Of a stretch of DNA of 4,098 nucleotides, positions 1 to 3,000 are shown one piece after another. A program made the position numbers. Origin of the DNA: a virus. Lineage: Duplodnaviria; Heunggongvirae; Uroviricota; Caudoviricetes. Within the stretch, counting starts at the first letter, position 1. Every line of letters begins with the position of its first letter. Location: IMG/VR virus record IMGVR_UViG_2778261347_000018. The stretch is one strand, 5' to 3'.

Positions 1-3000
1 TGACACTGGGACTGAATGCGCTGACGCTGACGGATGTTACAAAAAATGCAGCGTATGGCGTTGAGATAGAAAGTCTGGTGCTGGAGATAAATGCACCGGC
101 ATCATCATAAAAAGTGAGCCAGTCAAATGGAAGGTATCGTTAAACTCACCGGTAGTGTCAGTGGGTCGTCTGAGACGCCTGCATGAGTTATCAGAGCCAT
201 CAGTAGTTAACTGGTGGCTTTTTTATTGTTGTCAGCTTCCGGATAACGGGAGACGGGGTATGTACCAGATGGAAAAAATCACAACAGGTGTGTCATACAC
301 CACGTCAGCGGTAGGGACGGGATACTGGTTACTGCAACTGCTGGACAAAGTCTCTCCGTCCCAGTGGGTGGCAATAGGTGTACTGGGGAGTCTGCTGTTT
401 GGCCTGCTGACGTATCTGACTAACCTGTATTTCAAAATCAGGGAGGACCGCCGTAAGACGGCGCGGGGAGACTAAAGCGATGAAGAAAAAATACGAACTG
501 GTTGTTAAAGAGATAAATAATTACCCGGATAAGATTGCTGTTACTGTGGCACTTGAAATTGGCGGGCATCCGTCGTTGTTGTTGCCACATGTGGCGATTA
601 GTCTTGACCGTACTGAAGGTGCCACGCTGGAGTTTTACGAAGCTGAGGCGAAAAAGCAGGCGAAGCAGTTTTTCATGGATGTTGCTGCCGGGTTATGTGA
701 AGGGGATGGTCCGTTGCCGGAAAAGCGGCCCATCATTTTAGAGGCGCAGGATGTGTTGATAACCTACAGAGGAAAACTACCGGGAATAATTACTGGTTCT
801 CTGAAGACTCCACCGCTGGCCTGAAGACTTAATATATCCAGGGATTTGAAATCGATAAACCCTGATAAATATCCATGAACGCAAAAATCAGATACGGCCT
901 GTCGGCTGCCGTTCTGGCGCTGATTGCCGCAGGTGCGCCTGCGCCTGAAATCCTCGACCAGTTTCTGGATGAAAAGGAAGGTAACCACACCACAGCATAC
1001 CGTGATGGTGCGGGTATCTGGACCATCTGCCGTGGAGCCACCCGGGTGGATGGTAAGCCTGTTATTCCTGGCATGAAGCTGTCGAAGGAAAAATGCGACC
1101 GGGTTAACGCCATTGAGCGTGATAAGGCGCTGGCATGGGTGGAGAAAAACATCAGAGTGCCACTGACCGAACCCCAGAAAGCGGGGATTGCGTCATTCTG
1201 TCCGTACAACATTGGCCCCGGTAAGTGTTTCCCGTCGACGTTTTACAGACGGATTAATGCAGGAGATCGAAAAGGTGCCTGCGAAGCTATTCGCTGGTGG
1301 ATTAAGGACGGTGGCAGGGACTGCCGTATTCGCTCAAATAACTGTTACGGTCAGGTATCCCGTCGTGACCAGGAGAGCGCGCTGGCGTGCTGGGGAATCG
1401 ACAGATAAGCAGAATATTTTGCTGAAAAATGAGGTTTGCTTACATGGATGGATAACACGAAATCCTGCAAATTGGCAAAATGTAAGTGAATAAAGTCAAA
1501 ACAGTTGTTTAACACTCAGGCACCGTAATGATGCCTTTGTCATTTCTGCGCATCTCACGCGCATCTCACAACACAGAACCTTTCAGGATGACCCTTGAGG
1601 ATACCGGTTTGGCTGTCGGTGCCTTTCTGTGGGCTGGATTCCTGTGAGACAAGGTTCATCACTAAAAGGAAATAACCGATGAATATGATGGCCGTGCCGT
1701 TTCACGGCAACTCTCTTTATGTAGTTAACCATAATGGCGAACCATACGTTCCCATGAAACCTGTCGTTGCGGGGATGGGGCTGGCCTGGCAATCACAGTT
1801 GGCTAAGTTAAGACAGCGTTTTGCGTCAACTATAACGGAAATCGTTATGGTTGCTGAGGATGGGAAACAACGCAATATGGTGTCCATGCCACTTCGAAAA
1901 CTTGCCGGCTGGCTACAAACCATTAATCCCAACAAAGTAAAACCCGAAATCCGCGATAAGGTCATCCGGTATCAGGAAGAGTGCGACGATGTTCTTTACG
2001 AGTACTGGACGAAGGGTTTTGTCGTTAATCCCCGTAAAATGAGCGTGATGGAAGAACTCAACCAGGCTTGTGCTGACATGAAACGGGATAAAAACATTGC
2101 CAGTGTGTTTGCTACCGGGCTGAATGAGTGGAAACAGGTTAAAGCCGCGCATGTATCAAAAATCCGTACGCTGGTAAATGAAGCGAATATGCTGATTGAT
2201 TTTGTCCTGGCTGATACAGGCAAAGGGAAAATAACAAAGGCGGATTGATGGGGTGGCTAATGATATCAGATAAACTCATAACGCTGGTGAAGAGCCTCTG
2301 TGTACTTGTCGGCATTTCATTTTTAGTCATGCTGGTTGCCATTTTCTTTTCCACCGCCTGGCGAGTCCTGACGTTATCGGGACTGGTGGGGTGAAAGAGA
2401 GATGAACCGTGTTCTGTGTGTGGTGATTATTGTCATGGCGGTTGGCTGTGGTGCGCTGTGGCTGGCAACAAACCATTACCGTGACAACGCGCTCACCTAC
2501 AAAGCGCAGCGCGATAAAAAAGCCAGAGAGCTGGAACAGGCGAATGCCACCATTACTGACATGCAGGTGCGCCAGCGTGATGTTGCTGCGCTCGATGCAA
2601 AATACTCGAGGGAATTAGCCGATGCGAGAGCTGAAAATGAAACTCTGCGTGCTGATGTTGCCGCTGGTCGTAAGCGCCTGCGGATCAACGCCACCTGCCC
2701 CGGTACCGTGCGTGAAGCCACCGGCACCTCCGGCGTGGGCAATGATGCCGCCGTCGAACTCTCTCCGGTTGCTGGACGAAACGTTCTCGGTATCAGAGAC
2801 GGAATCATCAGCGACCAGGCAGCATTGAGAATGCTTCAGGAATATATCCGCACTCAGTGTATTAACTAGTATTTTTGTTATTCGGAGAATGCATGAAGAA
2901 ATTATTGGTAACCGTAAAGCCTTTTCAGGGAACAATTCCGTTCCGTATTTTGCAGCGTGGTCGTGTTCTTGTTGAAGGTTCGTTCAGTGGTAAATGTACG

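Follow-up and report, generated by a model that had tools for sequence, protein, structure and literature searches.

The founding member of the DUF1327 family (Pfam PF07041) is YdfR of Escherichia coli K-12 (b1555, P76160), which is encoded in the Qin cryptic prophage in the slot between the S21-type holin gene essQ and the lysozyme gene rrrQ. In the lysogen grown under standard conditions, K-12 ydfR is practically silent, with almost no RNA-seq reads, and overexpression of the protein changed few transcripts (PMC13232886). The protein itself is stable and can be purified; in a two-hybrid screen its residues 1-72 came up on three occasions and yielded signals against RNase E 1-597, while a full-length fusion with a short linker interacted with Rne1-597 only (PMC13232886). 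Strep-YdfR copurified Rne1-598-FLAG, and it copurified DNase-resistant nucleic acid (ca. 329 ng/ul versus at most 11 ng/ul in the controls) (PMC13232886). Here we describe a relative of this gene in a stretch of 4,098 nucleotides from a tailed-phage record (IMGVR_UViG_2778261347_000018; Caudoviricetes), hereafter the window, whose DNA shares 98.3% identity with that of an E. coli prophage. The gene order S-ydfR-R-ant-orf-Rz is the same in the window, in the Stx1a prophage of E. coli PV0838, and in phage BP-4795; the differences between the latter and the window all lie outside ydfR, 5' of position 191 and at places within 2870-3700.

Family membership and distribution

The open reading frame at 480-824 (plus strand, ATG at 480-482, 114 aa) encodes a genuine YdfR/DUF1327 family protein. 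Its product matches PF07041 over profile positions 1-92 of 93 with 143.8 bits (E=2e-42; the curated gathering cut-off is 25 bits), as do all 34 aligned relatives, and it matches phrog_406 of PHROGs with E=1e-62; a search of NCBIfam matched no family model. The DNA of the gene is identical in E. coli PV0838, where the protein (100% identical) is listed in RefSeq as WP_000731219.1, “YdfR family protein”. ORF47 of BP-4795 (YP_001449284.1; 96.5% identical) carries the same annotation. A first-pass annotation, made from the sequence alone, had found no function that could be assigned. The protein does have an identity, being PF07041/DUF1327 or, in NCBI terms, a YdfR family protein from the family of K-12 Qin ydfR; the family is already catalogued, and the window gene is an ordinary member of it. 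The same annotation had set its view of the gene against a known domain of mundane function or a broken frame in close relatives: a confident domain match was indeed found, to a domain with no established function, and disruption of the frame is rare (2 of 93 loci). The closest experimental reference is the K-12 protein. Residues 1-74 of the window protein are 45% identical (pairwise E=4e-20) to P0148, a protein of 103 aa that is almost the same as K-12 YdfR, and the two genes share the same host clade and the same slot with the same 4-nt junction. The K-12 protein differs by its length (103 aa) and by an unrelated helical tail that replaces the middle segment (residues 75-112), and its gene differs at the 3' end, where the stop codon overlaps the rrrQ start; the window ydfR is instead followed by a 50-nt spacer.

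YdfR/DUF1327 proteins are small soluble accessory proteins of Escherichia and Shigella lambdoid prophages. Of 5426 complete E. coli genomes, 3159 (58%) contain DNA related to ydfR, with up to 8 copies in each. The proteins form 276 clusters at 90% identity, with source names that are all Escherichia or Shigella among the 120 listed; at 50% identity, a set of 1.84 billion proteins yields only 52 cluster representatives. In species-representative genomes YdfR was found only in Escherichia/Shigella records and in two contigs of metagenome-assembled genomes that are probably mis-binned. The holin-endolysin slot had been described as normally empty in cassettes of the phage 21 type, which is overstated: among phage records, 436 carry an S21-type holin and 101 (ca. 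23%) a YdfR relative, and complete E. coli genomes hold 6734 ydfR places against 16729 holin places (ca. 40%), so that the slot is often filled. The gene is nevertheless accessory, as phage 21 and the Stx2a phage VT2phi_272 have no ydfR and lyse with S and R directly adjacent.

Junctions with the holin and endolysin genes

Upstream of ydfR lies the gene of an S21-type class II (pin)holin (260-475, plus strand, 71 aa; PF04971, E=1.7e-32; phrog_20 and phrog_9876, holin) that is 73% identical to S21 of phage 21, annotated as a dual-start antiholin/holin, and that carries the dual-start motif M1-Y-Q-M4. The two genes are joined by a coupling junction (465-479, plus strand): the last holin codons hold the Shine-Dalgarno sequence for ydfR (GGGGAG, 465-470, 9 nt 5' of the ATG), and the holin stop TAA (473-475) is separated from the ATG by the spacer AGCG (476-479). 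This is how the junction had been read at first pass, and the coupling proposed there extends well beyond the window. The geometry of holin stop, 4 nt and ATG recurs in 90 of 92 related loci, with N-domain identities from 43% to 100%, each time directly behind an S21-type holin, and it is the same at the K-12 essQ/ydfR junction. Predicted RNA folding at the holin/ydfR junction does not differ from that of shuffled controls (z=-0.2), and Rfam gave no match anywhere in the window at E<=0.1. Crude consensus scans found neither a sigma-70-like site on the plus strand upstream of 480 nor a terminator-like site in 825-874, which at this crudeness is no strong negative; the sole strong terminator that they found lies at 193-231, 5' of the holin gene. 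Lacking a promoter- or terminator-like site of its own, ydfR appears to belong to the Q-dependent late transcript, on which its translation is probably coupled to that of the holin.

Downstream (816-874, plus strand) come the final two sense codons of ydfR (816-821), its stop codon (822-824), and the spacer (825-874). The 50-nt gap before the endolysin gene recurs in 64 loci. Its final part, 853-874, is a conserved endolysin leader with no obvious Shine-Dalgarno sequence, and the leader motif AAATATC(C/T)ATGAAC is common to the window and K-12, where it forms the 3' end of ydfR. The spacer shows no significant RNA structure (z=-0.9 versus shuffled controls), and a 5-bp CAGGG/CCCTG stem within it is not claimed, since folding of the spacer does not differ from that of the shuffled controls. 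The endolysin gene R (875-1408, plus strand) encodes a phage lysozyme of 177 aa (PF00959, E=1.5e-24; phrog_7, endolysin) with a hydrophobic SAR-like segment at its N-terminus. It is 95% identical to the endolysin of VT2phi_272, which starts 4 nt after its holin: in that phage, which has no ydfR, the endolysin ATG occupies the holin-coupled position. Where ydfR is present it always occupies this holin-coupled start in place of the endolysin, which in the window is moved behind a 50-nt leader without an obvious Shine-Dalgarno sequence; by its position alone, ydfR should thus change the holin-to-endolysin translation ratio. Further downstream, an Ant gene is situated between R and Rz at 1679-2248.

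Domains, alleles and selection

The protein is soluble, as had been noted at first pass. Its highest 19-residue Kyte-Doolittle mean is 1.09, compared to 1.83 for the transmembrane domain of the holin, 1.74 for the SAR segment of the endolysin (residues 9-27), and 2.82 for the small open reading frame at 2245-2394, which indicates that it has neither a membrane segment nor a signal peptide. Residues 1-74 (480-701, plus strand) make up the N-terminal core domain, delimited by the AlphaFold2 (AF2) model, by invariant residues, and by homology to P0148; they are predicted to form three beta strands followed by a long helix (AF2 block-mean pLDDT of 72-91 over residues 1-70). The family signature, written as YELxVK ... 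DRxEGxxLEFYEAxA, is complete in the window protein (Y5-E-L-x-V-K10 ... R44-x-E-G47-x-x-L-E-F-Y-E-A55), and its residues are invariant or nearly so in alignment A1 and in a wider N-domain alignment of 19 sequences. Stand-alone family members of 71-76 aa exist. With a pI of 5.6 the N-domain is acidic; its basic helix residues 58, 59, and 62 are not invariant across the family. The middle segment (residues 75-112, CEGDGPLPEKRPIILEAQDVLITYRGKLPGIITGSLKTPP; 702-815, plus strand) is kept in many alleles and conserved in A1, is absent from K-12 YdfR, and is also found behind a different N-terminal part in P0150; the AF2 model gives pLDDT values below 50 for residues 75-114.

In the structure search that the first-pass annotation had recommended, Foldseek gave no significant match, and the predicted N-domain shows only a weak likeness to double-stranded RNA-binding (dsRBD) and RNase H folds, and sequence searches of the PDB, with the single sequence and with a 34-sequence profile, gave no match. 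The three-strand-plus-helix layout and a KKQAK motif had raised the idea of kinship with HicB-N/DUF1902-like proteins or with dsRBDs, which was rejected, as there is no Pfam signal even at E<=10 and the motif is not conserved. A true dsRBD (PF00035, dsrm) is recognized by its alpha-beta-beta-beta-alpha fold, a basic KKxAK where helix 2 begins, and a match to the model. The window protein resembles the beta3-alpha core of dsRBD and RNase H-like folds only loosely: it has no dsRBD N-terminal helix and no dsrm signal in Pfam, its basic helix patch is not conserved, and its domain is acidic.

Forms of YdfR span 103 to 329 aa, with extensively shuffled C-terminal modules. The long alleles (176, 183, 287, and 325-329 aa; phrog_2091 and phrog_1085) share residues 1-112 with the window protein, with DNA up to 95.6% identical, and the same holin junction; they also have a further helical region and, at the C-terminus, a module of ca. 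145 aa, both missing from the window allele and neither of them with a match to a known family. In blastn, homology between the window and the 329-aa allele L084 is confined to window positions 266-815 and 853-951, and bases 816-852 of the window replace ca. 675 nt that encode residues 113-329 of the long alleles. The window therefore carries a short allele, which consists of the N-domain and the middle segment and lacks the residues, up to ca. 215 of them, that extend the C-terminus of the long alleles. Pfam and PHROGs matched only families of unknown function in the long alleles, and a PDB search with the 329-aa allele gave no match. Some length variants are frameshifted or truncated; of the 93 related loci, 91 keep an intact reading frame and 69 keep the 114-aa frame, in 21 distinct protein variants.

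Compared pairwise with close alleles, the gene has a dN/dS of about 0.3 which, together with the invariant motifs across forms that are 33-45% identical, indicates selection on the protein sequence. A spurious open reading frame is ruled out by this ratio, by the PF07041 match, and by the intact frames in relatives. Among 28 close alleles, codons 1-41 show 9 nonsynonymous against 5 synonymous columns (5 against 7 in the remainder), and codon 37 occurs in four states (D/H/N/Y). A dN/dS of 1.8 for codons 1-41 was discarded, being driven by one saturated divergent allele (L005); the pattern indicates relaxed constraint in this part, and positive selection is not demonstrated. The N-domain has diverged further than its neighbors, to 43-62% identity in loci where the holin remains 75-93% and R 88-93% identical. 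Co-variation between holin and ydfR alleles, looked at as a possible sign of a physical interaction, amounts only to short-range linkage, with mixed combinations of classes.

Possible functions of the protein

Our preferred reading, to which we give a probability of about one in three, is that the window protein is an accessory cytoplasmic late protein associated with RNA or RNase E. The conserved N-domain of three strands and a helix would bind RNA, or the N-terminal half of host RNase E (its catalytic and membrane-proximal part), or both; YdfR would then influence RNA decay or processing in the cytoplasm during late infection, and would have no structural role in the lysis apparatus. The proposal builds on the K-12 data, the sole report of such binding in the family, which come from a screen with an overproduced paralogue 45% identical over the N-domain. 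The copurification was from lysates without nuclease treatment, so the contact with RNase E may be bridged by RNA, and the middle segment, absent from K-12 YdfR, is a part of the window protein without experimental counterpart. The acidity of the N-domain and its non-invariant basic helix residues count against the mechanism, as do the restriction of the full-length, short-linker fusion to Rne1-597 and the small number of transcripts altered by overexpression. Phages do encode modulators of RNase E, such as Srd of T4, gp0.7 of T7, and Dip of phiKZ, which are early or middle products with demonstrated effects on mRNA decay; T4 Srd acts on the N-terminal half of the enzyme. The proposed target would be the same for YdfR, which differs by showing no kinship to them in sequence or fold, by being late, and by its limited effect on the transcriptome when overproduced.

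An unlikely alternative is that of a lysis-timing regulator: a cytoplasmic protein, produced at a fixed ratio to the pinholin, that would bind the holin's basic C-terminal tail in the cytoplasm, or the not-yet-released SAR endolysin, and would thereby delay or sharpen triggering. Small cytoplasmic regulators encoded beside a holin, or acting on one, are found in P1 (LydB) and T4 (RIII), and the logic would be analogous. The strict placement of the gene between an S21-type holin and a lysozyme, with the coupled 4-nt junction in 90 of 92 loci, agrees with such a role, as do the K-12 overlap of ydfR and rrrQ, which gives a coupled chain S, ydfR, R, and the acidity of the N-domain versus the basic holin tail. 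Position is weak evidence, however, as the same cassette tolerates the unrelated Ant cargo at 1679-2248, and a young family of narrow range, spreading through recombination in the conserved S and R genes, may account for the strict synteny. The gene is also dispensable, most S21-type cassettes being without it; holin and ydfR classes occur in mixed combinations; and Pfam, PHROGs, PDB, and Foldseek revealed no likeness in sequence or fold to known antiholins or lysis regulators such as lambda S107, S21-71, P1 LydB, and T4 RI/RIII. We know of no lysis phenotype for any member of the YdfR family.

Rather more doubtful is a functional moron, i.e., cargo that helps the lysogen or the phage against competitors (for example by superinfection exclusion, anti-defense, or stress tolerance) and is unrelated to lysis or RNase E. 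The first-pass annotation had favored a moron, and part of that view stands: ydfR is an optional extra gene, present or absent between otherwise collinear cassettes, and its G+C content (47.5%) deviates from that of the holin (52.3%) and endolysin (54.9%) genes. The divergence of ydfR relative to its neighbors, the relaxed first 41 codons with the four states of codon 37, and the shuffled C-terminal modules point the same way, and in an overexpression screen ydfR was listed with a 3-fold rise in the streptomycin MIC (PMC12924614). Independent expression looks less likely, as the crude scans showed no promoter-like site upstream and no terminator-like site just downstream, and the K-12 homologue is essentially silent in the lysogen under standard conditions (PMC13232886). 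Made only with the holin, minutes before lysis, the protein would have little time to protect the host. PADLOC-DB gave no match at E<=1 for the window protein or the long alleles, and only a chance-level LmuB match (E=0.02) for the K-12-type protein.

A bolder form of the RNA/RNase E reading, which we regard as improbable, holds that YdfR proteins are phage-specific binding factors for RNA or RNase E, made in fixed proportion to the pinholin, that would tie the fate of late mRNA or of inner-membrane RNase E to lysis timing; the fast N-terminal loop (residues 25-38, with codon 37 in its four states) and the shuffled C-terminal modules would then stem from an arms race with a partner in the host or in a competing phage. 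Least probable of all is the absence of any protein function, with ydfR a translated spacer that sets the holin:endolysin ratio by shifting R from the holin-coupled start to a leader with no Shine-Dalgarno sequence, or a decaying remnant of the 329-aa form, as the ca. 675 nt missing from the window allele and the many, sometimes frameshifted or truncated, length variants might suggest, for this is contradicted by the dN/dS of about 0.3 with the motif set invariant across forms 33-45% identical, by the 114-aa frame intact in 69 of 93 loci in 21 variants, and by the stable, purifiable K-12 homologue (PMC13232886).

In itself the window gene is of little consequence, being already annotated and belonging to a family that most E. 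coli genomes carry. The family, on the other hand, is among the commonest of E. coli prophage genes and sits in the best-studied lysis pathway, and its core is the first 74 residues alone, the part reported to bind RNase E in K-12. If the link to RNase E or RNA holds in the copies of Shiga-toxin phages, YdfR could affect how late genes are expressed and when release takes place; and if a coupling between lysis timing and RNase E were true, it would add a new layer of control to the pinholin/SAR-endolysin pathway.

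The YdfR-family gene and its coupling to the holin

The open reading frame at 480-824 (+) begins with ATG, has 114 codons, and belongs to the YdfR/DUF1327 family. Matches to Pfam PF07041 (DUF1327) with E=2e-42 and to PHROG 406 with E=1e-62, pairwise dN/dS values of about 0.2-0.45 against 27 close alleles (mean ratio 0.34), and a reading frame left intact in 91 of the 93 related loci together rule out a chance frame. HMM score, signature residues, synteny and host range, i.e. all the criteria that could be tested, agree with DUF1327/YdfR membership. E. coli PV0838 has an identical DNA copy in its Stx1a prophage, annotated as WP_000731219.1, 'YdfR family protein'; ORF47 of BP-4795 (96.5% identical) carries the same annotation. 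The family is named after ydfR of the Qin cryptic prophage of E. coli K-12, located between essQ (an S21-type holin) and rrrQ (lysozyme) and likewise starting 4 nt after the holin stop. Gene, family, position and even the exact protein are thus in public annotation, and the finding is already known.

The stop codon of the holin (TAA, 473-475) is followed by AGCG and then by the ATG of the open reading frame, which therefore lies 4 nt past that stop. The Shine-Dalgarno sequence GGGGAG (465-470) sits within the last holin codons, 9 nt 5' of the ATG. The best 19-residue Kyte-Doolittle mean of the product is only 1.09, compared to 1.83 for the holin, 1.74 for the SAR segment of the endolysin, and 2.82 for the ORF at 2245-2394, so that it has no membrane segment and should be soluble and cytoplasmic. 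The junction and the lack of a membrane segment had been accurately described in the first-pass annotation, and the observation is real. Its interpretation was partly right, in that the gene is holin-coupled, soluble, and optional. That annotation, however, had left unassigned a gene that belongs to a well-populated, named family, and had overstated the emptiness of its slot.

The 93 loci are made up of the window, 80 viral contigs (a set biased to close relatives), annotated records, and genomes representing species; upstream sequence is present for 92. In 90 of these 92, exactly 4 nt separate the start of the YdfR gene from the stop of an S21-type holin. The geometry is constant from 43% to 100% N-domain identity. 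The window holin carries the S21 dual-start motif M1-Y-Q-M4 (260-271), and the phage 21 holin is annotated as dual-start. A sizeable subset of the related loci (holins in L015-L094 of our set) has I-H-Q-M or I-H-R-M, with Ile for the first Met; judged from sequence, such alleles would lack the longer, antiholin start.

The YdfR family is extremely common, yet phylogenetically very narrow. Of 5426 complete E. coli genomes, 3159 contain DNA related to the open reading frame; such places number 6734 in all, with as many as 8 in a single genome. When 1.84 billion cluster representatives were searched exhaustively with HMMER, only 52 clusters at 50% identity were returned and, with one genome scanned per bacterial species, the family was confined to E. 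coli, E. ruysiae, E. albertii, Shigella, and two metagenome bins. The latter (L008 and L010) are labelled Veillonella parvula and Bacillota bacterium. Their holin-ydfR-endolysin cassettes are of the K-12 type, and the flanking genes have close E. coli matches: relative to the window, identity is 76% for the holin and 89-90% for R (the endolysin), which are also the K-12 values. These contigs are probably mis-binned Escherichia sequence.

Gene order of the lysis region

The window (4098 bp) corresponds to the lysis region of a lambdoid prophage from E. coli. Enterobacteria phage PPyecE_EH1910 is 98.3% identical across the entire window, while Stx1a-converting phages and BP-4795 show about 96% identity over about 75% of its length. 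The S21-type class II holin (260-475) and the YdfR-family gene are followed by a lysozyme (875-1408) whose N-terminus bears a hydrophobic SAR-like segment. Between this endolysin and Rz (2402-2869, +) lies an antirepressor-like gene (1679-2248, +; P22_AR_N and ORF11CD3 domains; phrog_524 Ant), so that the lysis cassette is split twice by cargo (ydfR and ant). The gene ant has the same position in BP-4795 and PV0838, and a 270-nt non-coding stretch (1409-1678) is situated directly 5' of it. Just 5' of the holin, between its start and the 3' end of the ORF at the 5' edge (stop at 106-108), a strong intrinsic-terminator-like hairpin is found at 193-231 (+), with a 12-bp stem followed by TTTTATTGTTG; late transcription presumably has to pass it by Q antitermination.

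The small, very hydrophobic ORF at 2245-2394 (+; 45-49 aa, with a single clear TM segment) overlaps the stop of ant, and 8 nt lie between its end and Rz. Its counterparts in BP-4795 (ORF50) and PV0838 are listed as hypothetical protein only, and it has no PADLOC match. Embedded in Rz is a +1-frame ORF (2622-2828, +) with a lipoprotein-like signal and a proline-rich mature part, predicted features typical of an Rz1 o-spanin, which is unannotated in the BP-4795 and PV0838 records. The region 2870-3700 looks like a further cargo insertion 3' of Rz; parts of it are among what most relatives lack (e.g. BP-4795). It contains a 74-residue ORF (2893-3117; 80 aa if the upstream TTG at 2875 is used) belonging to phrog_2571 (unknown function) and with no Pfam match, and, within an AT-rich stretch, a hydrophobic ORF of 52 aa (3456-3614). 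The window closes with a DUF3950 (YlcI/YnfO family) gene (3744-3944, or to 3989 from an upstream GTG, -), whose relative ynfO is also near the lysis cassette of K-12 Qin, and the start of a gene (3971-4098, +) annotated as HNH endonuclease in BP-4795 and PV0838.

Modular architecture and possible function of YdfR

The YdfR family is modular. Residues 1-74 form the core, with the invariant signature YELxVK ... DRxEGxxLEFYEAxA, and stand-alone proteins of 71-76 residues exist. K-12 YdfR shares only these residues with the window protein (45% identity, E=4e-20) and lacks the second well-conserved segment, residues 75-112 (PEKRPIILEAQDVLITYRGKLPGIITGSLKTPP), which in one protein stands behind a different N-terminal part. 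Many alleles extend into helical and further C-terminal modules (148, 176, 182/183, 206, 287, and 325-329 aa) that match no characterised family. By DNA comparison, the window allele is equivalent to a 329-aa allele that has 37 nt in place of about 675 nt; this short form is the commonest in the sample (69 of 93 loci). The 325-329-aa alleles (L084:744-1733; L047, L086-L088, L093; viral contigs) have about 215 extra residues, made up of a helical region and a roughly 145-aa module that matches phrog_36381 and phrog_26186, neither with relatives in Pfam or the PDB. Overall, the family gives the picture of a single N-terminal module joined to interchangeable tails. An AlphaFold2 run on a 34-sequence alignment predicts antiparallel strands (5-14, 18-27, 38-43) and a long helix (50-73), reasonably confident over residues 1-70 (block-mean pLDDT 72-91), the tail from residue 75 being unmodelled (pLDDT <50). 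Membership of the dsRBD family was considered and rejected.

Apart from an overexpression screen that lists ydfR as raising the streptomycin MIC 3-fold (PMC12924614), the only experimental data on the family found in the literature are those of PMC13232886 (RNA Biology 2026). There, a bacterial two-hybrid screen yielded residues 1-72 of K-12 YdfR three times, YdfR signalled with RNase E 1-597, and Rne(1-598)-FLAG copurified from lysates with Strep-YdfR. That preparation held large amounts of DNase-resistant nucleic acid. Because YdfR had no nuclease control, the copurification could be RNA-bridged. As counter-evidence, overproduction caused no growth defect and only limited transcriptome change, and ydfR was almost silent in the lysogen. 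Since the window protein has exactly the domain that carries the K-12 interaction, the mechanism with the best support is that of an accessory late protein of the cytoplasm that would bind RNA, the N-terminal half of RNase E, or both. We give this about one chance in three, because the data were obtained in a screening setting on a paralogue with 45% identity.

Of the rival readings, a cargo gene benefiting host or phage is supported by the lower G+C (47.5% vs 52-55%), presence/absence polymorphism, a variable N-terminal third, and divergence faster than in neighbour genes, but is weakened by silence in lysogens, the lack of a PADLOC match, and the fact that no promoter or terminator of its own was found. 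The proposed moron status holds for polymorphism and composition, but not for the autonomous transcription of the classical definition. Only position and coupling speak for a timing regulator acting on holin or endolysin, a reading weakened by the unrelated cargo (Ant) in the same cassette. A mere translated spacer or decaying remnant is at odds with purifying selection and with motifs that stay invariant even where identity to the window protein is as low as 33-45%.

The interval between holin and endolysin

The slot had been called normally empty, which is only partly right. YdfR relatives occur in 101 phage records against 436 with an S21-type holin (about 23%) and, by DNA-level estimates, at 6734 places against 16729 for the holin in complete E. 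coli genomes (about 40%). In phage Perceval (L014, 2036-2405) 370 nt of inserted sequence lie between a 104-aa YdfR allele and the endolysin, with the conserved endolysin leader recurring at the end of the insert; the holin-endolysin interval thus looks like a hot spot for repeated insertion. Phage 21 has S and R directly adjoining and, in the Stx2a phage VT2phi_272, which is without ydfR, the endolysin ATG lies at stop + 4 nt behind the same GGGGAG. The YdfR gene thus occupies the coupled start that is otherwise the endolysin's. The window endolysin is displaced 3' and preceded by a 50-nt spacer in which no Shine-Dalgarno can be recognised; the final 22 nt of the spacer are the conserved endolysin leader, a sequence that in K-12 forms the 3' end of ydfR. 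From this anatomy of the cassette, insertion of ydfR should change the translation of the endolysin relative to the holin, whatever YdfR does.
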